Below are positions 1 through 35,561 of a DNA stretch of 38,200 nucleotides, one piece after another. The DNA lies in the IMG/VR virus record IMGVR_UViG_2703719355_000022, positions 1 to 38,200 of that record. One strand, 5' to 3'. Position 1 is the stretch's first letter; every line of letters starts with the position of its first letter. A program made the position numbers and the translations under genes. The stretch is from a virus. Lineage: Duplodnaviria > Heunggongvirae > Uroviricota > Caudoviricetes. Below the pieces are notes generated by a model. The model made no database searches and was not told the DNA's origin. It worked only from the letters and a program-made list of their open reading frames with translations.

Positions 1-124
1 TATCGAATCGTAATTATGTGCAGATGATTCGGCAGTCTATATCAGTTGTTAAAAATGACAACTTTTCGTTAACTGTAATTAAACCATCACCAGCGATAAC
101 TCTTTGCCAAGCGCCTTTGCCGCA

Positions 125-159
<35 letters not shown>

Positions 160-234
160 GTTAAATAGGCGAGTAATCTCCTGTTTAGGTTTGCCTAATA
201 TAATGCCCCCACAATAACACGAGGGGGTACAACA

Positions 235-507
235 ATGAACATCGGTAAAGCAATCATCAACTACGCAGCACGTCGCAACATGGACATTACCTTGATTGAC
301 GATGAGACCGTGGCGTTCTGGGAAGCGGATAACGATTGTGAATGGATGTTCTCCTACATGATTGGTAATGATGGTTTCCTCCACTTTAAAGGGAATGTGT
401 ATCTGCCGCAGGATATTAAAGAAGAATTACCAGCGTGCATCGATACAGACAAGAAGCTGAAAGAAGTAATCAACTTTATCGCTAAAGAGTTTATCAGCAA
501 GAAGTAA
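235..507 (+). CDS. hypothetical protein (90 aa)
   Basis: ORF with ATG at 235 preceded by GAGGGGG ribosome-binding motif; no recognisable domain. Confidence 0.5.
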   Translation: MNIGKAIINYAARRNMDITLIDDETVAFWEADNDCEWMFSYMIGNDGFLHFKGNVYLPQDIKEELPACIDTDKKLKEVINFIAKEFISKK

Positions 508-944
508 TGTCTAATTTGGCGGGTACTATTCCCGCCGATTTAAACGGAATACAGACAATGTTCAATATTATGACTCGTAAATTTGGTGAGATGACTTTCG
601 AGAAAGCTGGTGTTGCTCGTACCGAAGAAGAAGCAATGGCCTTAGTTCTGGTAGCACTGAGATCATCAACTGAGATTATCGACGCTGAATATGTAGCCGC
701 AGAAGGTGAGATTAACGAGGTTAAAGCGGTGGCTAAGGAATTAGGTGTTAAAGGTTTCCGTAAGCTGAGACTATCCCGCGAGTCATATGTAATTGGTAAG
801 CAAGGACAATACCTAGATGAGAATACCGTGATTGTTCTACTGAATAAGATTACCCGCTACGGTTGGAAGATTGAGCAATATAAAACGTGTTTCGAATTAT
901 ACGAAAAAGGTTTGCTGGATACTCTGACCATCGTTCGCGCTTAA
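507..944 (+). CDS. hypothetical protein (145 aa; true start may be ATG at 558)
   Basis: ORF whose ATG overlaps the upstream TAA (TAATG); a hairpin repeat element covers the first codons so a downstream start is possible; no recognisable domain. Confidence 0.45.
   Translation: MSNLAGTIPADLNGIQTMFNIMTRKFGEMTFEKAGVARTEEEAMALVLVALRSSTEIIDAEYVAAEGEINEVKAVAKELGVKGFRKLRLSRESYVIGKQGQYLDENTVIVLLNKITRYGWKIEQYKTCFELYEKGLLDTLTIVRA
510..536 (+). repeat. intercistronic hairpin repeat copy 1 (TCTAATTTGGCGGGTACTATTCCCGCC)
   Basis: Stem GGCGGG/CCCGCC with 7-nt loop directly after the TAA of ORF 235-507; near-identical copy at 951-977. Confidence 0.6.
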
Positions 945-950
945 TTAATT

Positions 951-977
951 TCTAATTTGGTGGGTGTAATTCCCGCC
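951..977 (+). repeat. intercistronic hairpin repeat copy 2 (TCTAATTTGGTGGGTGTAATTCCCGCC)
   Basis: Same 27-nt element with stem GGTGGG/CCCGCC, located directly after the TAA of ORF 507-944. Confidence 0.6.
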
Positions 978-1073
978 CTATTCAACCATGAAATTATTAG
1001 AGCTACTTATTCTTAGCATTTTAGCGCGTTTTTTCTCGCTGTTTATATTGTTGTTATTGTTTAGGAGAATCAA

Positions 1074-1199
1074 ATGAAACAGTTTCATGATGGTATTTCA
1101 TCTAAGACATTCAAGAAAGAATATAGCGGAGCGTGTATTAACTGGAGTGATTTAATTGGAGCGGTTGTGTTTGGTCTGGTAATTAGCATTAACTTTTAA
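1074..1199 (+). CDS. small hydrophobic peptide (41 aa, MKQFHDGISSKTFKKEYSGACINWSDLIGAVVFGLVISINF)
   Basis: Not in the ORF track (below its size cutoff); ATG at 1074 with AGGAG 6 nt upstream; C-terminal hydrophobic stretch LIGAVVFGLVISINF; followed by hairpin plus T-run at 1214-1250. Confidence 0.4.
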   Translation: MKQFHDGISSKTFKKEYSGACINWSDLIGAVVFGLVISINF

Positions 1200-1213
1200 T
1201 CTTTAATCACCTA

Positions 1214-1250
1214 GCCCCTATCGTTATAATACGCGGTAGGGGCGTTTTTG
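1214..1250 (+). terminator. putative rho-independent terminator (stem GCCCCTA/TAGGGGC then TTTTT)
   Basis: Inverted repeat 1214-1220 / 1237-1243 followed by T-run 1245-1249; the loop is large so strength is uncertain. Confidence 0.45.
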
Positions 1251-1262
1251 TTTGGAAATGGT

Positions 1263-2942
1263 ATGAAAACTAAACTGTATTCGTATATTCGCTTCTCTTC
1301 AATGAAGCAAGCGGATGGTAGTTCTTATGAACGCCAAAAGAGAACAGCCGCAGAGATAGCCGCAAAATATGACCTTGAACTGGTTACAAGCTATCAGGAT
1401 TTTGGTGTATCTGCATTCAAAGGGGCTAACAGTAGAACAGGTGCATTATCTCGTTTTCTGGATGAGATTGGTCGATCTATTCCGGTTGGTAGCTGGCTGG
1501 TTGTGGAAAACTTGGACCGTATCTCTCGCCAATCCATCATTGAAGCACAAGAGCTATTTCTCTCGATTATCCGTAGGGGAATAACTATCGTAACTGGCAT
1601 GGATGGTAAGGTCTATAGCAAGGAATCGGTTAATGCCAATCCTATTGATTTGCTATTGAGTGTCATGTTGTTTGCGAGAGCTAACGAGGAAAGCCAGACT
1701 AAGCGCAATCGTACTAACTCAAGCGCACTGATTAAGATTAAAGCTCATCAAGAAAATCCACAAAATCCGGCTGTTGCAATCGAGGAAATTGGAAAGAATA
1801 TGTGGTGGACTGATACCACTTCCGGTTATGTGTGTCCCGATCCGGTCTTCTTCCCTATTGTTCAGGAGGTTGTGGAATTACGCAGGAATGGACGGTCTAC
1901 CGCCGAGATACTGGATCACCTTAACGCGACATATACACCACCACCAGCCGCAAGTCACAAGAGGCATTCAAACTGGTCACGAGCAATGATTGAAAGGTTG
2001 TTCCATACCCGCGCTTTGATTGGTATCAAGGAAATCTCTGTAGATGGCGTTAAGTATGAGTTAAAGGATTATTACCCTCGTGTGCTAGATGACGCTGAGT
2101 TTTATCACCTTAAGAAAAGCATTGGTGTTAGAGCATGTAACTATGGAGACAAAGAAGAAGCTAAACCGATCCCCCTGCTTAGTGGTGTTAATCTGCTGAA
2201 ATGTGAACATTGCGGTTCCGCTATGGTTAAGGTGAAAGGAACTAACAAACGTCCTAACCAATATCGTTATTCATGCGATGCAATGCGCTCTAGTCGTATT
2301 GCATGTGTGCATACAAACTGGAGTTTTCGAGGTGATCAATTAGAGAAAGCTGTATTGCAATTGCTGGCTGATAAAATCTGGATTGCTGAGGATAAGGCTA
2401 ATCCGGTTCCGGCTTTGAAAGTACAGATTGATGAAATATCACGCAAGATTGATAACCTGATTACCCTTTCTGCTATGACAGGAGCAACGAAGGAGTTAGC
2501 CGACCAGATTACTACCCTCAATAGCGAGCGTGAAACACTCTACAATCAGATTAAGATGGCAGAAGAGGAAATGTATTCTGTGGACTCTCAAGGCTGGGAG
2601 AAGCTCGCAGAATTTGATTTAGAAGATGTTTATAACGAGGATCGCATTAAGGTCCGGTTTAAGATTAAGCAAGCTCTAAAACGGATCGGGTGTAGCAGGA
2701 TTGACAAATACAAAAACTTGTTTGTACTGGAATACATTGATGGTAAGACCCAGAGAGTTGTAATAGAAAATTCAAGAGGACCGAGGAAAGGCCGGATCTT
2801 CGTTGATTTGAAGACCATCAATGATAGGCAGATTCTGGAGAGTAACGGGCTTGTTTTGCATCCATGTTTAGACATGCTGACAGATAAGAACTGGAAACCA
2901 GAAGAGGAAATACCAGGTCCATTACAGGAATTTGGAATTTAA
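1263..2942 (+). CDS. large serine recombinase (integrase/resolvase family)
   Basis: N-terminal resolvase-type catalytic motif YSYIRFSSMKQ...RQ, about 560 aa, Cys-rich zinc-ribbon-like segment CEHCGS...YRYSCDAMRSSRIACVH, C-terminal coiled coil; first ATG at 1263 (track start at 1248 is TTG). Confidence 0.85.
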   Translation: MKTKLYSYIRFSSMKQADGSSYERQKRTAAEIAAKYDLELVTSYQDFGVSAFKGANSRTGALSRFLDEIGRSIPVGSWLVVENLDRISRQSIIEAQELFLSIIRRGITIVTGMDGKVYSKESVNANPIDLLLSVMLFARANEESQTKRNRTNSSALIKIKAHQENPQNPAVAIEEIGKNMWWTDTTSGYVCPDPVFFPIVQEVVELRRNGRSTAEILDHLNATYTPPPAASHKRHSNWSRAMIERLFHTRALIGIKEISVDGVKYELKDYYPRVLDDAEFYHLKKSIGVRACNYGDKEEAKPIPLLSGVNLLKCEHCGSAMVKVKGTNKRPNQYRYSCDAMRSSRIACVHTNWSFRGDQLEKAVLQLLADKIWIAEDKANPVPALKVQIDEISRKIDNLITLSAMTGATKELADQITTLNSERETLYNQIKMAEEEMYSVDSQGWEKLAEFDLEDVYNEDRIKVRFKIKQALKRIGCSRIDKYKNLFVLEYIDGKTQRVVIENSRGPRKGRIFVDLKTINDRQILESNGLVLHPCLDMLTDKNWKPEEEIPGPLQEFGI

Positions 2943-2978
2943 GCGGCCTAAATCGACGTATAACGAGCTAAAACAGTT

Positions 2979-3008
2979 AAGGGGTACAGATGTACCCCTT
3001 TTTAATTT
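2979..3008 (+). terminator. rho-independent terminator after the recombinase gene
   Basis: GGGGTAC-AGAT-GTACCCC hairpin followed by TTTTTAATTT. Confidence 0.65.
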
Positions 3009-3218
3009 AATTGCGTTAGGCAGCGTAAGCAAGTTTCATAGTAGTTTCCTCTAAAATAATAAGTTCACTACTATTTATCAGAGAAAATTGTCTTACTATT
3101 GCATTCTCTATCTGGATGTGGGTATAGGCGGGATTGAATACGGCAAAACTGAAACATTCCACTACTGCAATAAATCACTAAACAATATAAAGAATATTGC
3201 AAGTGTGGAGTGGAACTA

Positions 3219-4709
3219 ATGCAAGATATTAAAATTCATTTTCAAGATTACAGTTTCGTTAAGGTTGATTGCTCTCCTTCTATCGGAATGGAATTAAGAG
3301 ATTATTTCTCGTTTGAGGTTGAAGGGGCTAGGTTTAGCCCCCGTTACAAGTATTCTGGCTGGGATGGACGAATAAGACTGTTTACGCATGAAAACACCCT
3401 ACCAATTGGACTATTAAAAACGTTGGGTGTCTTTGTTAAAAATATGGGCTATTCAGTCTGGATTGACCCGCGATTGCTTGAGAAGGAAGATGTAACCAAA
3501 GACGCGATTAATGAATGGATTGATTCCCTAGAAGTGTATTCCGGTTCCAATAAAATCAATCCTTACTGGTATCAGCGTGAAGCAGTCTTTCTGGGTATTC
3601 ATAATCGCCGTAGAATGCTGGTTCTTCCTACCAGTGCCGGAAAGTCATTGATTGCTTGTATGCTGTCTCGCTGGTACTTAGAGCATTACACCGGAAAAAT
3701 TCTAATCATTGTTCCGACTACATCGCTAGTGGTTCAAATGAGGGATGATTTCATCGATTATAGGCTATTCCCTTATGAAGCAATTCATACAATGATGAGT
3801 GGTAGCGGGAAACATCCGGGAGATAGGCTAATCACTGTTTCAACATGGCAATCAGCTTGCAAGATGCCTCCTGAATGGTTCCGACAATATGGAATGTTGA
3901 TAGTTGATGAATCACATAAGGCTAGTGCCAAAAATATTACCAATATCATCAATGGAATGAATCATTGCCAGTTCAAAATCGGTATGACTGGTTCCCCGAA
4001 AGAATCAAAATGCCATTTAATGCAGTATGTCGGGCTTTTCGGTGATATTTCTAAGATCGTTAGCATTGACCGCCTGATGGAAGAAGGTCAAGTGACGAAA
4101 CTGAAAATCAACTGTCTTTTCCTTCGTTATACCGATGAGGAATGTAGCGCGGTTAAGGGTAGAGAATATGCGGAAGAGATCAAGTATATTACGTCTAACC
4201 CACGACGTAATAAGTTTGCTTGTAATTTGGCGCTAAAACTCGCTAAGAAGGGCGAAAACGTATTCCTGATGTTCCGCAATACTAAGCACGGAAAACTTAT
4301 GTATGATGCGTTACAGAAGGTACACGACAAGGTTTATTATATTGACGGTGGAGTTAAGACAGAAGAACGAGACGAGTTCAAAAAATTAGCGGAAGGGGAA
4401 ACAGGGATCATTTGCGTTGCATCCTATGGTGTGTTCTCTACTGGTGTTTCTATCAAGAACTTGCACCATGTTATTTTCGGGCATCCAGTTAAAGAATCAA
4501 CCATTGTTAGACAGAGTATCGGTCGTGCATTGCGCAAACATGGTTCTAAGGATATTGCTACCGTTTGGGATCTTATAGATCATCTGTGTATATTCGGTCG
4601 TAACGGAAAAATCAAGCATAAAAATTATGCGGTAAAACATGCACTTGAGAGAATCCGCTATTATTTGACCGACAAGTTCAGCTATGCAACTAAAACAATT
4701 GCTATATAA
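3219..4709 (+). CDS. uvsW: UvsW-like superfamily-2 DNA helicase
   Basis: N-terminus MQDIKIHFQDYSFVKVDCS...GWDGRIRL and motifs LVLPTSAGKS (Walker A-like), IVDESH (DExH), VASYGVFSTG, WDLIDH match my recollection of T4 UvsW along the whole length; ATG at 3219 with GGAG upstream. Confidence 0.85.
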   Translation: MQDIKIHFQDYSFVKVDCSPSIGMELRDYFSFEVEGARFSPRYKYSGWDGRIRLFTHENTLPIGLLKTLGVFVKNMGYSVWIDPRLLEKEDVTKDAINEWIDSLEVYSGSNKINPYWYQREAVFLGIHNRRRMLVLPTSAGKSLIACMLSRWYLEHYTGKILIIVPTTSLVVQMRDDFIDYRLFPYEAIHTMMSGSGKHPGDRLITVSTWQSACKMPPEWFRQYGMLIVDESHKASAKNITNIINGMNHCQFKIGMTGSPKESKCHLMQYVGLFGDISKIVSIDRLMEEGQVTKLKINCLFLRYTDEECSAVKGREYAEEIKYITSNPRRNKFACNLALKLAKKGENVFLMFRNTKHGKLMYDALQKVHDKVYYIDGGVKTEERDEFKKLAEGETGIICVASYGVFSTGVSIKNLHHVIFGHPVKESTIVRQSIGRALRKHGSKDIATVWDLIDHLCIFGRNGKIKHKNYAVKHALERIRYYLTDKFSYATKTIAI

Positions 4710-5105: not shown

Positions 5106-5453
5106 TTAGATGTATTGCATAAGATACCCAATAAATCTGAGTCCCTTAATGTAATAAGGTGCTGTGCCTATGCATACCGCTCGTGCATCACCAATACAAT
5201 TGAAGTTGTAAGGGTTAACTACATCAATCTCCTGCCCTACACGGAAGCGGTATTTAGGACGTTTAGCGAGTGTCGCAACACAAAACACTAACCCATTACC
5301 ATCATCGCGGATCATTTGCTTGAATTGTTTATGCTTTACTCTCTTCGCCTCGTAATCAAGTGTCATTGATTCAGGGCTAATGCCATTGATAAAAATACCG
5401 GAAAGCTGGTCGACCGGATAAGTAGGAAATTCAGTGAAAATATTTTTAGCCAT
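5106..5453 (-). CDS. hypothetical protein (115 aa)
   Basis: ORF with GGGGG ribosome-binding motif 5 nt upstream of the ATG; no recognised domain. Confidence 0.45.
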   Translation of the reverse strand: MAKNIFTEFPTYPVDQLSGIFINGISPESMTLDYEAKRVKHKQFKQMIRDDGNGLVFCVATLAKRPKYRFRVGQEIDVVNPYNFNCIGDARAVCIGTAPYYIKGLRFIGYLMQYI

Positions 5454-12185: not shown

Positions 12186-14705
12186 TTACATTCTACGACG
12201 CTGGGCGTCTTCTACTGCTTGGGCAACAAGTTTCGGATGGCGTTTAATCGCTTCCATTACCATTGCATCAGAGCTATTAACGTTACCGCTAATTTGCAAA
12301 GGAGCATGTACCTCAATCGGCTGAGAGTTACCAGTGTTACCGGATTTCTGGTTAGCTAAGAAGTCTTTCAGATCGCCGTTAGTACGATCATCAACAACTC
12401 GTTCCCCTTTCTGTAACAGCCATGTACCCTCACGCGGGATGTTATCAATACCGTCATGCGCCATACCGTCAACAGAGATTGATTTCATCTGCGCAACACG
12501 AGCGATTGCAGAAGCATAGCTAGCAGCACCCATCGCAACACCCAACGGTCCAGGATACTTAGCCATAGCCTTAGTTGCGGCTTCGTGTGCGTTCATCATA
12601 CCCATTGCGATAGAAACGCCTTTCTGTGCTGCAAATAGTCCCTTAGTAACAGCGTTATTCTCTAAGCCAAATGCTTGTAACGCCTCACCAAATCCACCGA
12701 ACATATCCTGTGTATCTTGCAAGCGCATGTTATTGTATTTTAAGTCAATTTCACGCATTTTCTTTTGATGCGCTTCATTGAGTGCTTGCAGTGCTTTAAA
12801 TTGTTCAGCTTGAGGCAGTTTATCAATGTTGGCTTTATGGGTAGCGTAATCAGCATTAGCATTATCAACATCAACGGCTTTCATCTCGTCAATAGTCTGA
12901 TCACGTTCACCGAAGGAGTTAGCTAGACCACGAGATTTGATTTCTTGTAGTCCATCGGTCGCACCAGTACGGCCTTTGTAAGCATCTTCAATACGCTGTT
13001 TTTCTGCCAGATAATCCGCTAATTTGATGTTTTTATTCTGGTAGTTTTCTTCCAGATCTTTAAGGCTTTGTTCATAAACCTGTTTAGAAGCAGCCAACAT
13101 TTGCAGGGCTTCCATTGGATTTGCACCTAATACAGATTTACGGAAGTTTTCCGCGTTAGCATTAATTAGCTGGCGTCGTTTCTCTTCGTATTGTTCTTGC
13201 GTGATAATACCCTGTTTAAGAGCGTTATCTAACTTAGCAAGGTTTTCGGTAATCTGACGGTTAGAAGACGCCACAGCAGCTTGTGACGAGCTATACAAAG
13301 AGATATTGATGGCCTTCAAATCATTGTAGGCTTTTTCTCTTAATTTTTTGGCTTCGTCTGCGGCTTTCTTCGCTGCATCTTTAGCTTTCTTGGTTTCTGG
13401 ACAATCTGCGGCTGAATGCGCACCTTGCTTACATACAGGGCAAAGAGATTGAACACGGCGTTTATTCTCTTCTTCCTGTTTCTTTTTCAGTTCATCGGCT
13501 TGTGTTTGCAGTTCAGCAGCTTTGCGTTTGCGTTCTTGTTCTGCTAGATCTTCGAAGCTGGTTGCAGCACCGTTACTAACACCGCTTGCGATGGCTTCCT
13601 CTACCGCATCACCTAATCCTTGAGCGCCTTTCTTGATGTTATCGGTAGTCAATGCTGGGATTTCAAAATCAAGAAAATCGGCATCAGCACCAAACCAGCC
13701 AGCAATAGTTTTACCACCCTTGCGGATCGCATTCTGTACTTTAGCGATAATCTCGGCTAGTTTGTTGTACAGATTAATCATTGTTTCCTGTACAGTTTTA
13801 ACCGTCTTGATTATCGGGTTAATTGCTGTAAGTAGAGCATCCTTAGCTTTCTGGAATAACGGCGGGAGATTTTCGGTCACAAACTTACTAATAGCTTTCA
13901 TACTCAAATAGAAAGTAGTATTAGTAAAATCCTTGTTGAAATAATCATAGATTAAGTTGAATCCTTTCGGGAGGAACGAAAATACATCCGCGAAAGCACC
14001 CATTACCGTTTTACCTAAAGCGGTCAAATTAGAACTTGCGTTTGAATACGCGGTCGCTGTTTCTTCTGAGACATAAGCGGCTTGTTGTTGGAGCTTAACT
14101 TGATGTTCCCAATAGTCGTTTGATTCAGACAAAGCACCGATCATCTTACTGGAATCAGAAGCAATTCGTTCCATACCCGCGATAATTTCAGAATGGCTTA
14201 GTCCTGCGGCTTTAGCTTGGTAATACCACATTTCAGCAGCTTTGCGACCGCCTTCTGGATCATCGGTAAAGGCTGCATAATCCTTGATATCGCCTTTGAT
14301 CATTTTAAGCGCGGCTTGAAATTCCCCTGTGCCGTCTCGCCATGCTTCACCTAGTTTCTCGGCTGCATCCTTGTTAATATCAAGAACTTTTTCAGCATTC
14401 AGACCAAAGCCACTATAGACTTTTTCCATCTTCTGAATTTGTTCGATATTAACGCCAAATTCTTTCGACATATTGGCATATTCGATAGCCATTTTTGCGC
14501 CACCAGCAGCAAGGGCAGTAAGAGCACCCAAAGCAGCACCAGCAGCCATCCCCAATGGACCCAGCTTACCTAACAATCCACTGATAGAGCCAGTTAAATT
14601 ACCGACACCACCGGAGGCAAGACCATCAAGAATACCACTTGCTTTATCTGCGGCAGATTCAAGACCACCAGTAACGCCAGTAATATCAAATCTTAATTCT
14701 GACAT
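12186..14705 (-). CDS. tail tape measure protein, 839 aa
   Basis: Long Ala/Gly/Gln/Lys-rich predicted coiled-coil protein between chaperone-like and minor tail genes; AAGAGGT ribosome-binding motif. Confidence 0.85.
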   Translation of the reverse strand: MSELRFDITGVTGGLESAADKASGILDGLASGGVGNLTGSISGLLGKLGPLGMAAGAALGALTALAAGGAKMAIEYANMSKEFGVNIEQIQKMEKVYSGFGLNAEKVLDINKDAAEKLGEAWRDGTGEFQAALKMIKGDIKDYAAFTDDPEGGRKAAEMWYYQAKAAGLSHSEIIAGMERIASDSSKMIGALSESNDYWEHQVKLQQQAAYVSEETATAYSNASSNLTALGKTVMGAFADVFSFLPKGFNLIYDYFNKDFTNTTFYLSMKAISKFVTENLPPLFQKAKDALLTAINPIIKTVKTVQETMINLYNKLAEIIAKVQNAIRKGGKTIAGWFGADADFLDFEIPALTTDNIKKGAQGLGDAVEEAIASGVSNGAATSFEDLAEQERKRKAAELQTQADELKKKQEEENKRRVQSLCPVCKQGAHSAADCPETKKAKDAAKKAADEAKKLREKAYNDLKAINISLYSSSQAAVASSNRQITENLAKLDNALKQGIITQEQYEEKRRQLINANAENFRKSVLGANPMEALQMLAASKQVYEQSLKDLEENYQNKNIKLADYLAEKQRIEDAYKGRTGATDGLQEIKSRGLANSFGERDQTIDEMKAVDVDNANADYATHKANIDKLPQAEQFKALQALNEAHQKKMREIDLKYNNMRLQDTQDMFGGFGEALQAFGLENNAVTKGLFAAQKGVSIAMGMMNAHEAATKAMAKYPGPLGVAMGAASYASAIARVAQMKSISVDGMAHDGIDNIPREGTWLLQKGERVVDDRTNGDLKDFLANQKSGNTGNSQPIEVHAPLQISGNVNSSDAMVMEAIKRHPKLVAQAVEDAQRRRM

Positions 14706-14728
14706 ATTAACCTCTTATTCTTATTATA

Positions 14729-14760
14729 TAAAAAAGCCCCACCGATAAAGGCAGGGCTTA
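14729..14760 (-). terminator. rho-independent terminator (family AAGCCCTGCC-loop-GGTGGGGCTTTTT) upstream of the tape measure gene
   Basis: 9-bp stem with two G-T wobbles, 6-nt loop, T-run on minus strand; one of four near-identical copies. Confidence 0.6.
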
Positions 14761-14768
14761 TAATTCAA

Positions 14769-15995: not shown

Positions 15996-16009
15996 TTTGA
16001 TTACTCCAA

Positions 16010-16040
16010 TAAAAAAGCCCCACCATTAAGGCAGGGCTTA
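16010..16040 (-). terminator. rho-independent terminator (same family) after the tail tube gene and its extension
   Basis: AAGCCCTGCC-TTAATG-GTGGGGCTTTTTT on minus strand. Confidence 0.65.
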
Positions 16041-16043
16041 TAA

Positions 16044-16163
16044 TTAATCTTTAGCCTTGCGGCTTCGTTTAGCTGTGGCTTTCGCCGTAACTTCTTCTAC
16101 TTCTGGAATCACCACCGCTTCATGTTCCGGCTGTGGTTCCGGTTCGGGAAGTTCTTCGTTAGT
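16044..16163 (-). other. in-frame stop-free extension (39 codons) after the TGA of the tail tube gene; candidate readthrough domain
   Basis: Hand translation after TGA gives TNEELPEPEPQPEHEAVVIPEVEEVTAKATAKRSRKAKD then TAA at 16044-16046; shares 23-nt block with capsid extension. Confidence 0.45.
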
Positions 16164-16693: not shown

Positions 16694-19600
16694 TTATTTA
16701 GTTGCTTTGAGTTCGGCAATCTCTTTAGTCAATGCTTCAATCTTAGCTTGATATTTGACGTCCATTTCCTGAATAGCTTTAATAATCAAGGCATTAACAG
16801 CAGAGTTAGAAATAGTCTTAATTGCTTCTGGATTTTCTGGATCTTCGGTGGATTGAATACCTACTGCTTCCGGCAATACTTCTTCCAGATCCTGAGCAAT
16901 AATACCGACTTCGCGTTTAATCACACTACGATCTTTAAGAGACTTAACTTTATCGTATGAGTAGACTTTCAGGGAGTTTACTTTCTCTAAAGCATCATCT
17001 TTTAATTCTTCCAGATTAACTTTCAGACGACGGTCCGAACGAATGTAAACATCGTTAAAGCTACCGTTACGACCTGCGGTAAAGTCACCAGCAGCGTTAA
17101 AGTCAAAGTTAGTATCATGAACATGGAGACGCACAAGAGCGTTACCGATAGTACCGCTAGGAACATGTACACCCATTGCTGCGATATGATATTTACCTTG
17201 ATGGGTTGCTTTCCATACGTTATGAGCGGAATCGGTTGATTGTTGACAGTCGACCTGAATACCAGAAGCACGATCACGCCAGCTAGCCCAACTACCACCA
17301 GCAACGCTACCACGAATAAGACCATTACCGCCACCGGATACAGTGCCCGTTTCAAGGTGAATCATCTTACCGCCGAATTTCCAGACTTCGGTTTGTTTCT
17401 CACCGCGCATACGCATAACGCCAGCATCATCGCAGTACAACAGACCCAATTCTAAGCCATTTGGATCTCTAAACCACAAATGCTTATTGCCACTGCGACG
17501 AAACTCAATATCAGCACCGTTAAGCGTGATATTACCGCCAGTGTGAATTGCTTTAGGTTTAACAGTACCGTTGATGGCAAACTCGATTAATTCAGTACCC
17601 GGACCGCCCGGTCGTTGTGTGTACCAGTGCCAACCGCTTTCGTCCGCACATTCGAATACTTGTTTACGAGCATCAGCACCCCACGCACGGATATTAAAGC
17701 TAGAAGTAGCTGTATTTTTGCCCCACGTTAATTTTCCTTCGGTAGTTAAATCCCCTCGGAAATGAGCAAGCAAACCACCAGATCCGTTACGTTCAGTGGT
17801 AAAGTGAGTTCCGCTAGTGTCCTGGAATTGCAAAACGTTATATCGGTTAGCGTTACTATTCCCCCAATGGTTAATCGTGAAAGAATCCATTGACTGATTC
17901 CCACCAGCAGAGAAAGTAAGCAATCCTTTTTCTAAGAATACGTTATTACTAAAGCGAGCAGCACGGCTATCTCTTTCAAGAATTAATGCACCTTCGTTAC
18001 CATCACCACCTAAAGTAACTTTACCATTTGTCAAATCGTAAATGAATGGTCGGTTTCCGTTCCACCCGCCCAATTTATCATTTTCGGCAGTAGAAAGAAG
18101 ATAAACTTTAGTGCCGTCATTACGCCAGAATGCACCATAATTACCGTAGATCATGCGGTAGGCGTCGCTATTCATTGAGATGAATTGAGCGTTAGTATAA
18201 ACTCGTTTTGTTCTACCAGTTGCAAGTTCGATCTGTCCGTCGATGTGGTGACGAATAGAAGTACCACCTACATCACTATACCATTCAAAAACGTTAGTAT
18301 CAGCATTACCATAACCGATCCACCCTTGACGGGTAATATCTCCAGTCCGATTATCTTGAAACGCAATATGGTTGGATTGACCAGCAGGACGCCGCAAGGT
18401 AATAACATTACTACCGCCACCTAACATCATTCGACCAGAAAGAATATTACCTTTATGAGTCCCAGCAATAGAGCTACTAGATTCAACGGTTAGAATCTCC
18501 TGAGCATCAGTGCTACCAGTAGCCAGACGATAACTGGAACCTTGAACCGTCTCATGCCAGATCATTTCATTATAGTTACTGCGGAATTTACGAATATATT
18601 TCCGACCAGTACCTTTATCATTACTTAGATGAACAATGTCATAGCTGTTTTGTGTGTTGTCGTCAAAACTCAACACACCACGTTTATTTTCTGTGTTAAA
18701 AAGAGTTACGTTGCGACCACCGATAACACCAACGGAAGGTTTAATTAACGTGGCTTCCGGCGTATCATAAACCGTCAAACTTACATAAACAGATTTCCCA
18801 TATTCGACAATAACGTTATCGGTATAACGCTGATATTTCACGTAGATATCATAGTTATCACCGGAAGTATTGACAGCAAATACCTCAAAATCTTTGTTTG
18901 TATTTCTACGGTATGCAATTACGTTAAGACCTTTAGGTCTATCGTTACCACTACGGAGAAGAATTTCTACTACATCAACTTGGTCATATGCCGTAACGTT
19001 GTAACCATTACCACCATGAATACGGAAAAACACACTACGCCCGTTTTGTGGAATTGTTGCGGTTGCCAATTTGAAATATGCAGATACGTTTTCGCTAGAA
19101 TTGGGAACAGACATAACGACGTTTTTAACAAACATCTTATCAACTTCGGCTTTGGTGTATGCACCAATCTCGCCAGGAGTCGGCTTATCACCTTCGTGAT
19201 ACATTTTATAGCTAAAGTCCTTCTGTCCTTCTCTATCAAAACCATAGGTTTCAACACGAGATCCACCAGACGCATAACGGAAAGTAAATCCGCGACCGTG
19301 CGCTTTACCGGCAGAATGAGGAACATTAAGAGTTAGATCTAAAAGACCATCTTGTTCATTAGTTCGGAAAGCACCAAAGTAATTAAGATCTCGTGATGTC
19401 TGGTCTTCCAGATAGTTAGCTGTCTTGCTTAACAGATACCCACCATGCTTAGTATTGGTATTCTTCTTGATGTAAAGAGCATCGTTGCTACCTTCAATAC
19501 CATCAATTCGACGGTTAGCGGCTGCAATCGCTGAATCAGTAGCTGATTTATTCTGGTCAACCTTGTTGTTAATGGCGGTGTGGTTGCTATTAACAGTGTT

Positions 19601-20305
19601 GGTTAAGTTGGTGATCTTCGTATCAGCATCGACCTTGTTATCGGATACAACCTTTTCGATTGCGGTCTTATTCGCCGCTACTGTCCCACTAAGGTTATTA
19701 ATTTTTGTGTCCGCGTCTTTCTTATTGGAAGTCACTGTAGCGGTTAAATTGCTAACGTTGGTGTTAGTGGTATTGACCTTGTTGTTTATTGCGGTATTGT
19801 TGTCCGCGACCGTCTTTGATAAAGCTGCGTGTTTACTATCGGCATCAGATTTATTCTGGTCGACCTTTGTGTTAATAGCGGTATGGTTGCTACTTACGGT
19901 CCCACTAAGATTATTAATTTTGGTGTCAGCATCGACCTTGTTATCACTAACCACTTTGGTCAAATTGCTAACGTTGGTATTAGTAGCATCAATGCGCTTA
20001 TTGGTCGCTGTATCTTTCGTGGTAATAGTCTGATTCAGTTCAGCTTTAGCACTAGCCAGATTATTAGCGGCCTCTTGTTTGTTGGAAGCAATAACACGGT
20101 CAGTGCTAGTTTTGTTATTGTCTACTTTCGTGTTTAAAGCATTATGACTTTCTGGGGAAACGCTGATTTGAACTACTGCGTTATTTTTGTCTTTGGTGTA
20201 AATTACATGGTCTGCCATCTGAATAGCGATTTCACCGACCTGTAATTGTTCTGGCGTTGGCTTTTTACCAGCCGTCTGTGTGCGTTTAAATTGGATAGAC
20301 TCCAT
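16694..20305 (-). CDS. tail fiber protein with C-terminal intramolecular chaperone (peptidase S74-like) domain, 1203 aa
   Basis: N-terminal tandem ~44-aa repeats (NTNVSNLT...DADTKINNLSGTV...); C-terminal segment DRRLKVNLEEL...VGIIAQDLEEVLPEAV resembles auto-cleaving chaperone domains of phage fibers. Confidence 0.8.
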   Translation of the reverse strand: MESIQFKRTQTAGKKPTPEQLQVGEIAIQMADHVIYTKDKNNAVVQISVSPESHNALNTKVDNNKTSTDRVIASNKQEAANNLASAKAELNQTITTKDTATNKRIDATNTNVSNLTKVVSDNKVDADTKINNLSGTVSSNHTAINTKVDQNKSDADSKHAALSKTVADNNTAINNKVNTTNTNVSNLTATVTSNKKDADTKINNLSGTVAANKTAIEKVVSDNKVDADTKITNLTNTVNSNHTAINNKVDQNKSATDSAIAAANRRIDGIEGSNDALYIKKNTNTKHGGYLLSKTANYLEDQTSRDLNYFGAFRTNEQDGLLDLTLNVPHSAGKAHGRGFTFRYASGGSRVETYGFDREGQKDFSYKMYHEGDKPTPGEIGAYTKAEVDKMFVKNVVMSVPNSSENVSAYFKLATATIPQNGRSVFFRIHGGNGYNVTAYDQVDVVEILLRSGNDRPKGLNVIAYRRNTNKDFEVFAVNTSGDNYDIYVKYQRYTDNVIVEYGKSVYVSLTVYDTPEATLIKPSVGVIGGRNVTLFNTENKRGVLSFDDNTQNSYDIVHLSNDKGTGRKYIRKFRSNYNEMIWHETVQGSSYRLATGSTDAQEILTVESSSSIAGTHKGNILSGRMMLGGGSNVITLRRPAGQSNHIAFQDNRTGDITRQGWIGYGNADTNVFEWYSDVGGTSIRHHIDGQIELATGRTKRVYTNAQFISMNSDAYRMIYGNYGAFWRNDGTKVYLLSTAENDKLGGWNGNRPFIYDLTNGKVTLGGDGNEGALILERDSRAARFSNNVFLEKGLLTFSAGGNQSMDSFTINHWGNSNANRYNVLQFQDTSGTHFTTERNGSGGLLAHFRGDLTTEGKLTWGKNTATSSFNIRAWGADARKQVFECADESGWHWYTQRPGGPGTELIEFAINGTVKPKAIHTGGNITLNGADIEFRRSGNKHLWFRDPNGLELGLLYCDDAGVMRMRGEKQTEVWKFGGKMIHLETGTVSGGGNGLIRGSVAGGSWASWRDRASGIQVDCQQSTDSAHNVWKATHQGKYHIAAMGVHVPSGTIGNALVRLHVHDTNFDFNAAGDFTAGRNGSFNDVYIRSDRRLKVNLEELKDDALEKVNSLKVYSYDKVKSLKDRSVIKREVGIIAQDLEEVLPEAVGIQSTEDPENPEAIKTISNSAVNALIIKAIQEMDVKYQAKIEALTKEIAELKATK

Positions 20306-21919: not shown

Positions 21920-21949
21920 AGTTACCCCCTTTTATGGAGTATTTACATA

Positions 21950-21980
21950 CAAAAAAGCCCCACCGATAAAGGCAGGGCTA
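21950..21980 (-). terminator. rho-independent terminator (same family) after the capsid gene and its extension
   Basis: TAGCCCTGCC-TTTATC-GGTGGGGCTTTTTT on minus strand. Confidence 0.65.
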
Positions 21981-21984
21981 ATTA

Positions 21985-22119
21985 TTATTTTGCTTTCGGT
22001 GGACGACCCACCTTTTTAGCTGTGGCTTTCGCCTTAACCGTCTGGGATTCTTCTTCCTGTGGTGGAATCGGATTTTCTTCCCCCAAATCGGGGGAAGGTT
22101 CAGAAGGTTCTACGTTATT
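21985..22119 (-). other. in-frame stop-free extension (44 codons) after the TGA of the capsid gene; candidate readthrough domain
   Basis: Hand translation after TGA gives NNVEPSEPSPDLGEENPIPPQEEESQTVKAKATAKKVGRPPKAK then TAA at 21985-21987. Confidence 0.45.
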
Positions 22120-29187: not shown

Positions 29188-29263
29188 TTCTCTTTGCCAC
29201 TCTTCGGAGTGGCTTTTTTGTATATAAAACAATCTGAGCAAAACTGCGCACATCTCCATATAC

Positions 29264-29291
29264 AAAAAGCCCCACCATTACGGCAGGGCTT
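29264..29291 (-). terminator. rho-independent terminator (same family) closing the minus-strand early operon
   Basis: AAGCCCTGCC-GTAATG-GTGGGGCTTTTT directly after the TGA at 29296. Confidence 0.6.
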
Positions 29292-29295
29292 CTAA

Positions 29296-29940
29296 TCAGA
29301 TTCCGAAGATAGCAAGGTCAATACAGTTTTCACTATCAAGCAAATCACCAAGACATTTCTTAGTCTTAGGCTTTCTAACACGCGTTTTAACGGCCTTAAT
29401 CTTAGCGGTAATGGGTTTGGCTTCCTGTACCTTGATTTTTGCTCTAATGGCCTCGGCAGCAGCCATAATTTCTTCTTCTACTCTATTTCTTTGTTCTTTC
29501 TCTCTTTGTGCTTGAAACAGTGCCAGCCTCATCCATTCTATCTTCTGGTGTTCTGGATCTGCATTAGCAAGAGCATCCTTCAAACGAAGATATTCAACCT
29601 TATCCGCATCACTCAAAGAATTATAGAAAGCAAGTTCTTTATTATTTCGTTGTTCTAGTTCCTCTTCCATACGGCGAATATCTTTGACGATCATGTAAGC
29701 GATGTTAGCACTTAATCCCATCATGATAATCAACACGGATCGCTTTCCACCTCTACCTTCAAAGACATAATCACCATCGGTCTTAGTTGGCTTTTCTTTT
29801 AATGCATCCCAACATCTAAGCAATTCCTCTTCCGCCCTCTGATATGACACCTCACATACAACAGCAACCTCGCTCAAAAGCATAGATTTAACGCTATCAT
29901 CACGCATAGCACGGGTAATATCTTCAATAGTCAGGTTCAT
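29296..29940 (-). CDS. hypothetical protein, 214 aa
   Basis: ORF downstream of the Rha-like gene; charged helical composition; no recognised domain. Confidence 0.45.
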   Translation of the reverse strand: MNLTIEDITRAMRDDSVKSMLLSEVAVVCEVSYQRAEEELLRCWDALKEKPTKTDGDYVFEGRGGKRSVLIIMMGLSANIAYMIVKDIRRMEEELEQRNNKELAFYNSLSDADKVEYLRLKDALANADPEHQKIEWMRLALFQAQREKEQRNRVEEEIMAAAEAIRAKIKVQEAKPITAKIKAVKTRVRKPKTKKCLGDLLDSENCIDLAIFGI

Positions 29941-32408: not shown

Positions 32409-32662
32409 ACGGGGACGGGAAAGAGACGGGGAAGGGATACCACGGGGACAGGTCGGGGATAACATGGGGATGATACGGGGACACCACGGGGAAAGCATTT
32501 AAAATCATATCCTTACATAAGAATACGCATCTAATACCGGGGATTTTACGCGGGGATGGCGGGGAAACTACCCTAATCCGGGGGATTTTGCTTCCAAAAC
32601 GGGGATGAACGCGGGGACGGTGACGGGGATACATCTTCTAAAGTGGGGATATCGCGGGGAAA
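32409..32662 (+). repeat. G-rich array of at least 16 same-orientation CGGGGA motifs, first seven largely phased at 11 bp
   Basis: GGGGA starts at 32411, 32428, 32444, 32455, 32466, 32477, 32488, 32539, 32552, 32561, 32581, 32601, 32613, 32625, 32645, 32656; flanked downstream by an AT-rich stretch. Confidence 0.8.
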
Positions 32663-34559: not shown

Positions 34560-35561
34560 ATGAACATTTACGCAATCGACAACAAAAAACTCAACAAAGA
34601 AGAAACTGAATCACTGGTAAACGTTCGTCTGACCTCCACCTTTGACGGTGGAGTTACCGCAAACTTCAAATTCACCGATAATCTTAACGGCGGTGATTAT
34701 TATCAGGAATTGTTTTCTATTCAGAATCCCCGCGCTAAAGATTCTGAGAATGTCATTAAAGAAATCATGAAACACGGTATCAAGCTGACGGTAGAAGAAC
34801 ATACTATGATTAACAGCTTCATCAATAAAACTGGTGATCGTCTGGTTTATTCTGTGGTTGGTTATGAACTTAGTGGGTTTTACGATGAAGAGAAGAAAGG
34901 CGTTGCTATGGTTGTGATTAGCCGTGGTGGCGTCGCTACTGTCTTCGCTTTTGGTAATGTTGTTCAGGGTACGCCGAAAACATCAAACGTTTATACGATC
35001 CGCATTAAAGAAAATAGCTATTGCCGTTATAATCTGGCTTTGGTGTCTACCGACGATAACAGCGTTGAACTTAGCGACATGAAATCCTACACCTTCCCTA
35101 TCGATGTGGAAGGCAATTTAGGAAAAACTGTGTTTCAATTCTATGTGACAAAACCTAAAGTTCCAGCATGTATTGAAGACCACGACCATCAAGTTTGTGC
35201 ATATAAAGCCAATCTGGAAGCGATTAAGGCCAAAGAGAAAGCAGAGCAGGAAGAACGGGATCGCCCACGTAAAGAAGCAGAGGCACAAGCAAAACAGCTT
35301 CTAGGCCGATTTAACAGCATGAAGACTAAGATCAAGAATGCTAAAACGTGGGAAGATGCGGTTAAGTTCTATCATCAAGCTAATATTCTTTTGGTTGAAG
35401 TAGAAGAAGCGCGGGATCTGTGGGCTAGCTTAGATAAGAAGTACGCGCAACGTAGATCGCCAGCAACCTTACAGCCGATTGATGAACTGTGCAAACTTCC
35501 TAAGCCAGAAATTAAACATGAAATTAAGAAAGCAAGACCTACCCTTCGTTTGGTTGCTTAA
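34560..35561 (+). CDS. hypothetical protein, 333 aa
   Basis: AGAGGAA ribosome-binding motif; Lys/Glu-rich helical C-terminus; no recognised domain. Confidence 0.5.
   Translation: MNIYAIDNKKLNKEETESLVNVRLTSTFDGGVTANFKFTDNLNGGDYYQELFSIQNPRAKDSENVIKEIMKHGIKLTVEEHTMINSFINKTGDRLVYSVVGYELSGFYDEEKKGVAMVVISRGGVATVFAFGNVVQGTPKTSNVYTIRIKENSYCRYNLALVSTDDNSVELSDMKSYTFPIDVEGNLGKTVFQFYVTKPKVPACIEDHDHQVCAYKANLEAIKAKEKAEQEERDRPRKEAEAQAKQLLGRFNSMKTKIKNAKTWEDAVKFYHQANILLVEVEEARDLWASLDKKYAQRRSPATLQPIDELCKLPKPEIKHEIKKARPTLRLVA

Follow-up and report, generated by a model that had tools for sequence, protein, structure and literature searches.

A 27-nt hairpin that occurs twice in the accessory operon at one end of an E. 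coli prophage is probably a terminator-derived intercistronic hairpin, which marks the 3' end of swappable gene modules and also serves as a patch of homology for their shuffling. The element was restricted to one E. coli prophage family. Features of this kind are ordinary in mosaic phage genomes, and the element represents neither a new class of element nor a new signal. It illustrates, at the population level, the stacking, loss and exchange of accessory genes at a prophage end, which take place at a short conserved stem-loop: about 100 loci were resolved into five architectures and one crossover was placed within 13 nt inside the hairpin. It is also a small, testable system in which one could ask if selection on terminator-type hairpins is for RNA function, recombination or both.

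The repeated hairpin

The pattern TCTAATTTGG(C/T)GGGT...ATTCCCGCC was found at only two positions in the window, which is the whole 38.2-kb stretch of DNA analyzed in this study. Both copies, referred to as HP1 and HP2, are on the + strand (Table 1). A pattern search that allowed up to 3 mismatches identified the same 2 copies in the 38.2 kb and 0 in 100 shuffles, and a looser search of the window for the hairpin core returned these 2 copies and no others. HP1 and HP2 were identical at 23 of 27 positions, and their similarity reached 44 nt (502–545 vs. 943–986; repeat family D16), over which the identity was 77%. HP1 begins 3 nt past the TAA of the ORF at 235–507 and HP2 begins 6 nt past the TAA (942–944) of the ORF at 507/558–944, with the stems starting 11 and 15 nt after the TAA, respectively.

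Both copies are predicted to fold into a 6-bp stem with a 7-nt loop. The dG values of the core hairpins were -11.3 kcal/mol for HP1 and -9.4 kcal/mol for HP2. In longer sequence context, the pairing probability of HP1 was ~1.0 and an imperfect extension of the stem brought its dG to -16.8 kcal/mol. An extended imperfect palindrome is found around HP1 at approximately 508–546, and HP1 is part of a 15-bp imperfect inverted repeat. The stem of HP2 contains one G.U pair, and its pairing probability ranged from ~0.4 to 0.6 in longer sequence context. With its G.U pair, the hybrid HP2 pairs only in + strand RNA. No T-run was found after HP1 or HP2, which are followed by GATTTAAAC and CTATTCAAC, respectively, and neither was flagged by a terminator scan of the window. 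Past the stem of the element, the RNA is AU-rich and single-stranded (GA-UUUAAAC or GC-UUUUUAAA). The sequence-only reading of the window had proposed a 27-nt hairpin repeated after TAA stop codons, which was confirmed by the sequence, the pattern search and the shuffles. It had also described a 6-bp GC stem, a 7-nt loop and no U-run in each copy, with which the folding and the terminator scan agreed.

The prophage and its accessory operon

The window is from an E. coli prophage inserted in hicB. Its gene content is that of a siphovirus and includes the genes for a lambda-J-like tail tip protein, a gpA-type terminase, an HK97-type capsid fused to a protease, a UvsW-like helicase and a large serine integrase. 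In E. coli genomes with related prophages, the same sequence as the host part of the window is annotated as a hicB pseudogene beside ydcR. Related prophages were found in 61 of 5426 complete E. coli genomes, where the insertion is in hicB, ycdX or codB. The window ends inside the prophage, so attR and the right prophage arm are not part of it. Both hairpins are within a small accessory operon that runs from attL to the serine-integrase gene and is the first operon inside attL (Table 1).

Table 1. Positions of the hairpins and neighboring features in the window.
Feature	Position	Strand	Description
Host E. coli DNA	1-195 (approx.)		ydcR side and 3' fragment of disrupted hicB
att core	184-195		TTTAGGTTTGCC; attL junction, repeated at attR of relatives
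Phage-side leader	199-234	+	TATAAT, -10-like, at 199-204; CCCCC/GGGGG hairpin at 206-210/223-227; G-rich SD before g1
g1	235-507	+	90 aa; optional accessory gene; phrog_6147
HP1	510-536	+	TCTAATTTGGCGGGTACTATTCCCGCC; stem GGCGGG/CCCGCC at 518-523/531-536; loop TACTATT
Spacer	537-557	+	GATTTAAACGGAATACAGACA; between HP1 and g2 start
g2	558-944	+	128 aa; optional accessory gene; C-terminal part matches phrog_14908
HP2	951-977	+	TCTAATTTGGTGGGTGTAATTCCCGCC; stem GGTGGG/CCCGCC at 959-964/972-977 with one G.U pair; loop TGTAATT; hybrid allele
s29	988-1077	+	Small hydrophobic ORF, 29 aa; alternative to the 26-aa s26 of most relatives
s41	1074-1199	+	41 aa; hydrophobic C-terminus; conserved in all architectures
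Intrinsic terminator, classical	1214-1253	+	11-bp stem, then GTTTTTGTTT; closes the accessory operon; flagged by the scan at 1214-1243
Serine integrase gene	1263-2942		Directly downstream of the operon terminator
Reused classical terminators	14734-14759, 16015-16039, 21956-21979	-	After capsid and tail genes

The integrase possesses the Resolvase, Recombinase and Zn_ribbon_recom domains of a large serine integrase. Pfam gave no match for g1, g2 or s41 and recognized no phage recombinase among the window ORFs scanned. PADLOC gave no match for g1, g2, s29, s41 or the g3 of relatives. Of three lipoprotein-type ORFs, one had no match either and two had marginal matches only (E values from 5e-4 to 6e-3). 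No SD was visible ahead of s29. None of the GenBank phages searched with megablast and sensitive blastn carried the element or this region, and the conserved core of g1 alone had matches, in lytic siphophages. Murrayvirus-like lytic phages (Sortsne and vB-Eco-KMB41) and Cronobacter phage ESP2949-1 have GC hairpins without a U-run after their g1 homolog and after neighboring small genes. These hairpins are unrelated to HP1 and HP2, and they recur in different order between phages. In the window itself, near-identical classical terminators are reused after capsid and tail genes. Their reuse in the same genome suggests that this phage habitually ends its genes with repeated hairpin modules.

The leader that precedes g1 in the window directly precedes g2 in the type A relatives described below, and its TAT(A/C/G)AT is conserved across integration sites. 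The leader may act as a promoter. In an attP-spanning site that was reconstructed from relatives, a -35 TTTACA in the attR-side arm is 18 nt upstream of the TATAAT. It is speculative that the accessory operon would be driven by a promoter formed only on circular phage DNA. If this were the case, the hairpins and the terminator that closes the operon could gate read-through into the integrase gene.

Architectures of related loci

About 100 related loci, from IMG/VR, metagenomes and E. coli genomes, were compared, and 34 were included in a module census. In these loci, this region is a combinatorial mosaic of optional genes. Type A is leader-g2-HP and lacks g1; type B is g1-(12 nt)-g2-HP; type C, that of the window, is g1-HP1-spacer-g2-HP2; type D is g1'-HP without g2, where g1' is an allele of g1 with 74% nt identity; and type E is g1-g3-HP3. 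In every case, the hairpin is found between the last gene of the first block (g1, g2 or g3) and a small hydrophobic ORF. The only extra hairpin copy is HP1. Located 3' of the hairpin are s26 or s29, then s41, 0–2 lipoprotein-type genes, a terminator and one of several integrase alleles. The g1/g2 junction of type B and the g1/g3 junction of type E have no hairpin. In type B, the 12 nt GGCAGCAAAACA are in place of the 50 nt at window positions 508–557, and HP1 is missing. Given that types B and E join genes without it, the hairpin is not required for stacking.

A junction search found HP1, i.e., the type C junction, in 19 of the 5426 complete E. coli genomes. Type C is carried by, for example, E. 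coli H2 (NZ_CP028733) and DEC5A (NZ_CP038394). Moreover, 13 complete genomes matched the end of g1 and the hairpin only, at ~88% identity; this pattern fits type D, for which sequence confirmation came from IMG/VR and metagenome loci only. In L096, which belongs to the codB-integrated lineage, the start of g2 is preceded by ...TTTGAACGCAGGAATACAGACA-ATG, and the 3' part of the spacer between HP1 and g2 is homologous to this attL-proximal leader. The match between the spacer and the g2 leader of L096 suggests that type C consists of two "leader-gene-hairpin" modules in tandem. A type D derivative with the window's own g1 allele, which would be the direct product of an HP1 x HP2 deletion, was not found among the compared loci. 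The hairpin was invariant across lineages whose g2 genes were only 84–88% identical. The comparison with relatives bears out the earlier suggestion that the element is at the boundaries of gene cassettes. The search for further copies, which had been proposed at the same time, found none elsewhere in the window and found copies at gene boundaries in the relatives.

The relatives also bear on where g2 begins. In type A, which has no g1, and type B, which has no HP1, the sequences directly upstream of the ATG equivalent to that at 558 are unrelated: type A has the attL leader at this place and type B has TAAGGCAGCAAAACA. In these two types, PGAP calls a 129-aa protein from this ATG. Wherever copy 1 is present, however, PGAP uses the upstream ATG, which is equivalent to window position 507, and the 17 extra codons of the ORF at 507–944 are HP1 and the spacer. 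The sequence-only reading had favored ATG 558, as HP1 covers the annotated start of this ORF, and the type A and B relatives agree with it. Thus, ATG 558 is supported over ATG 507 as the true start of g2, which corrects the upstream call of PGAP, and some initiation at the TAATG overlap may still occur in type C.

Breakpoints at the hairpin and the chimeric HP2

When 100 nt on either side were compared, the identity fell from ~100% to background exactly at the hairpin. Between the window and L005, the identities were 100% in the left 100 nt and 61% (background) in the right 100 nt. Between the window and L092, they were 57% on the left and 92% on the right, and between HP1 of the window and type D, 77 and 58%, respectively. 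HP2 of the window is a hybrid that combines the g2-linked 5' arm GGTGGG with the s29-linked 3' arm CCCGC-, and this hybrid was carried by the window and L011 only. The linkage of its arms points to a crossover inside the shared GGGTG(C/T)AATTCCC core, which left the G.U pair. HP2 lost its U-tail through the exchange that brought in s29, and HP1 is without a U-tail because the g2 leader comes next.

Alleles, covariation and diversity

The alleles of the element differ in stem, loop and downstream sequence. In the HP1 allele, the stem and loop given in Table 1 are followed by GATTTAAAC. The majority allele of HP2 has the stem GGTGGG/CCCACC and the loop TG(T/C)AATT, followed by GCTTTTTAAA, and the HP2 allele of the window and L011 has the stem GGTGGG/CCCGCC and the loop TGTAATT, followed by CTATTCAACC. 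The HP3 allele, which is found after g3 and before s29', has the stem AGCGGG/CCCGCT and the loop TGCAATT, followed by TACCCAA. Over 5 distinct alleles, which follow three different genes, 30 of 30 stem cells pair. Two-sided changes were found in 2 of the 6 stem pairs: one from G-C to A-U and one from C-G to U-A (U.G in the hybrid). Every slid register scored worse than the true stem register. In the covariation shuffle control, 37 of 500 shuffles reached the observed score, which, with 5 alleles, is only suggestive. Among 27 distinct sequences, pi was 0.013 in the hairpin region vs. 0.037, 0.025 and 0.10 at the g2 codon positions; the block of low diversity runs ~75 nt either side of the hairpin (alignment columns ~315–480), and the conservation is not hairpin-specific. 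The evidence for selection on the stem is modest.

The majority allele, TGGTGGG-TGTAATT-CCCACCG followed by CTTTTTAAA, accounted for 32 of the 42 listed element copies. It scores as a weak intrinsic terminator, and its form with GCTTTTT (T5 tail) was flagged as terminator-like in L008, as was the main terminator of the operon. Given that the commonest allele of the relatives has both a U-run and a terminator-like flag, the element is best seen as terminator-derived. The earlier description of the hairpins as not being classical terminators holds for the two window copies but not for this allele, whose U-run is GCTTTTTAAA.

Proposed role and alternative explanations

In the reading that we favor, the common allele (stem followed by GCUUUUU) would, as a weak and leaky terminator or as an attenuator, separate the first gene block from the downstream genes for small membrane peptides and lipoproteins. 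The U-less copies of the window would at most cause RNA polymerase to pause or protect the upstream mRNA against 3' exonucleases. The conserved 30–45 nt that comprise the hairpin and its flank would be the homology patch where co-infecting or resident phages recombine, and recombination at this patch would stack, delete or exchange modules. The type C arrangement of the window would consist of two stacked "gene + hairpin" modules, with g1-HP1 followed by an L096-like leader-g2-HP2, and its HP2 a chimera from a crossover in the loop and inner stem. From the sequences, we infer that the hairpins would function in termination, attenuation or stabilization in vivo and that homologous recombination would be the mechanism of the shuffling. 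A role in RNA processing, stability or attenuation is plausible. It is very improbable that the hairpin is a dedicated exchange site for "gene + hairpin" cassettes, which would be captured and excised as units beside the integrase gene, or a graded attenuator in an integration-state circuit that sets integrase expression.

The element might also be purely an RNA signal, either for processing or stability (for instance, a hairpin that protects the 3' side beside an AU-rich RNase E site) or for attenuation, with its position at gene junctions a by-product of its intergenic location. The compensatory stem changes with 100% pairing, a diversity of the hairpin region below that of the g2 coding positions, the AU-rich single-stranded sequence 3' of the stem and the unrelated U-less hairpins behind the g1 homologs of lytic phages are all consistent with such a signal. 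However, the chimeric HP2 points to a crossover within the element and each observed change of neighbors coincides with the element, and we consider a pure RNA signal rather unlikely. It overlaps with the RNA half of the favored reading, and the two are not mutually exclusive. The stem, which is kept by two-sided changes in alleles behind three different genes, and the invariance of the hairpin between lineages whose g2 genes have diverged argue against a functionless relic. Such a relic would be an old terminator hairpin, carried along as "gene + 3' end" pieces that were joined by illegitimate or short-homology recombination, and the window copies would be inert. The loss of the U-tract from both window copies, the weakened hybrid that is HP2, the lack of a hairpin between the genes of types B and E, and the presence of only two copies per genome in one prophage family fit this explanation, which we nevertheless regard as improbable.

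Least probable of all is that a protein recognizes the element as a DNA site, i.e., as an operator palindrome or as an integron attC-like site for cassette recombination beside the integrase gene. HP1 lies within the 15-bp imperfect inverted repeat, an "ORF + 3' hairpin" beside a recombinase gene resembles an integron cassette array, and the crossover maps within the hairpin. The symmetric compensatory changes, however, are predicted by a nucleic-acid stem and not by half-sites that are read independently. HP2 and HP3 have no extended palindrome, and an operator was rejected, as the extended inverted repeat is specific to HP1. An attC site is an imperfect palindrome of 57–141 bp (R''-L''/L'-R') with extrahelical bases, beside the gene of the tyrosine recombinase IntI. 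The element is unlike attC in being 19 nt long and perfectly paired, the adjoining recombinase, a large serine integrase, has an attP/attL of its own, and the other cassette junctions of the array are without the element; attC was rejected on these three grounds.

Comparison with known systems

Similar to intrinsic terminators, the element has a GC-rich stem of 6–7 bp and a 7-nt loop a few nt past a stop codon. An intrinsic terminator in E. coli needs a U-tract immediately 3' of the stem, with at least ~5 U within 8 nt. A T5 tail is present in the majority allele, whereas the window copies, with GATTTAAAC and CTATTCAAC after their stems, have no U-run. Intercistronic hairpins such as REP/BIME are said to stabilize mRNA. 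Similar to these, the window copies are U-less hairpins that separate cistrons of the same operon, where they could be a block to 3' exonucleases and cause the cistrons to be expressed differentially. However, the element is unrelated to REP in sequence, and it is not scattered over the host chromosome. In exact-pattern scans of IMG/VR, JGI metagenomes and GTDB, all true copies were at the same two positions in this prophage family, and those in E. coli genomes were also in this prophage region; REP/BIME or a dispersed mobile miniature element was rejected on this basis. Among GTDB representative genomes, the one exact pattern match was a chance match in a Chloroflexota MAG, and further chance matches were in marine contigs.

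In lambdoid nut sites, a short hairpin whose purine-rich loop is conserved is preceded, at a distance of a few nt, by boxA, CGCTCTT(A/T)A. The boxA-like matches in the window were at 13216 and 15134 only, both on the minus strand, and a nut site was rejected. The center of the loop, which would be conserved in nut, differs between copies of the element (ACT, GTA and GCA). Membership of an Rfam family was also rejected: in a permissive E-value scan, the best overlap was RF03142 with 15.3 bits vs. a gathering score of 37.8 (E = 1.6).

Mosaic temperate phages reportedly carry morons, terminators and boundary ("linker") sequences. Similar to these, the element involves optional prophage-end genes with a 3' hairpin and short conserved sequences at mosaic junctions. 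A classical moron is an independent transcription unit with its own promoter and an efficient terminator. The modules described here are different in that they share one operon and in that the window hairpins are without a U-tract.

The closest known analog is the stem-loop half of the PeSL (promoter-early stem-loop) motifs of T4-type phages, and the element itself is not a PeSL. PeSLs are repeated cassettes of a promoter and a stem-loop that flank ORFans (Arbiol et al., 2010, PMC2839356; Comeau et al., 2014, PMC4122927). Their stem-loops recombine within the loop, which leaves the sister phage with one chimeric motif (PMC2839356). The element has two copies per genome and is in a temperate siphovirus prophage, whereas PeSLs have ~50 copies and are in T4-type myoviruses. 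No sigma-70-like promoter was found on the + strand in window positions 1–3300, including at or next to the hairpins, and the best loop hexamers by eye (TGTAAT and TACTAT) had no -35. In positions 1400–3300 of L008, the sole promoter-like site on the + strand was at 2289–2318, inside s26 and downstream of the hairpin. A full PeSL was rejected, given that no sigma-70 promoter is joined to the hairpin and that only two copies were found in 38.2 kb. Similar to PeSLs, the element is a short repeated intergenic GC stem-loop that borders small accessory ORFs in a hyperplastic region, and in both cases the stem-loop is interpreted as a terminator or attenuator. In both, moreover, two copies flank an ORF in one phage where a relative has a single copy, and chimeric motifs result from crossovers that map within the loop: g2 is between HP1 and HP2 in type C, type D has only g1'-HP, and HP2 of the window is chimeric.

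Putative Promoter Divided Between the att Arms

A perfect -10 hexamer, TATAAT, was found in the phage arm directly inside attL, and -10 variants of the form TAT(A/C/G)AT were conserved across integration sites. When attP was reconstructed from relatives, with the attR arms of the related loci L093 (around 5310–5390) and L034 (around 35400–35450), TTTACA was located in the opposite arm, 18 nt upstream of the -10 hexamer, and upstream of TTTACA lie an AT-rich stretch and a terminator. These elements would form a putative promoter spanning attP, whose two halves would be separated by integration. If integration splits this promoter, transcription of the operon of the accessory genes g1 and g2 might be limited to circular phage DNA. 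The same limit might possibly apply to the serine integrase gene, int, if it is reached via read-through.

The leader hairpin, CCCCC(N12)GGGGG, overlaps the G-rich Shine-Dalgarno sequence of the first gene, and one leader is found for either g1 or g2, according to the architecture of the first gene block. At the other end, the accessory operon is closed by a strong terminator that was conserved in all relatives. Its 8-nt loop contains TATAAT and only about 10 nt lie between its end and the start of int (1263). This layout could reflect a weak promoter embedded in the terminator, or a means of letting transcription read through into int.

Coordinates of features in the window
Feature	Position	Strand
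attL region	184–234	
-10 hexamer	199–204	
Leader hairpin	206–227	
Hydrophobic ORF	988–1077	
T-run	1018–1021	
Operon terminator and interval to int	1214–1262	
Second-family hairpin	14726–14765	minus
Second-family hairpin	16006–16045	minus
Second-family hairpin	21947–21986	minus
Second-family hairpin	29258–29297	minus
Tail fibre ORF	16694–20305	minus
gp37-like stretch	16763–19438	
GGGGA-type repeats	32434–32498	

Small ORF, Repeats, and Insertions

The hydrophobic ORF downstream of g2 has no visible Shine-Dalgarno sequence and encodes 29 amino acid residues, vs. 25 in L011 and L092. Because its T-run is one base shorter than in these two loci (TTTT vs. TTTTT), the frame is shifted and the ORF extends into the start of s41, the next small ORF. 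Either a frameshift that arose naturally or an error in sequencing could account for the difference.

The second hairpin family comprises four near-identical copies (AAGCCCTGCC..GGTGGGGCTT, followed by a T-run). One copy follows the capsid gene, another lies close to the tail-tube gene, and the other two were found upstream of an 839-aa tail gene and after ORF 29296–29940. Three of these copies were flagged as classical terminators, and they may also act as recombination linkers. Tandem 11-nt GGGGA-type repeats (GGGATACCACG / GGGGACAGGTC ...), apparently in an intergenic or regulatory region, could be iterons or operator repeats. IS911/IS3-family insertions break the operon terminator in L011 (E. 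coli RMDEC332; 2200–3400) and a tail fibre gene in L093 (23376–24604). Thus, some members of this prophage family are defective.

Comparison With Other Phages

This temperate siphovirus has a tail fibre gene that encodes 1203 amino acid residues, and a stretch of about 2.7 kb in this gene was 74–89% identical at the nucleotide level to gp37, the long tail fibre distal subunit, of the Krischvirus myophages RB49, phi1, and ECD7. Such identity indicates, from sequence comparison, that a receptor-binding module was exchanged horizontally between very different phages.

Lytic siphophages with a g1 homologue (L068–L071 and L097) include Sortsne, ESP2949-1, vB-Eco-KMB41, and their relatives. In these phages, a U-less GC hairpin, such as GGCCCCGCAAGGGGCC, GCCCGGTCGAGAGCCGGGC, and GGCGGGAAATGGTCCCGCC, lies directly behind the g1 homologue and behind each of the adjacent small early genes, with a Shine-Dalgarno sequence next in order, and identical hairpins were found behind different genes in different phages. 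Judged from their arrangement, these hairpins look like a parallel case of gene shuffling bounded by hairpins.
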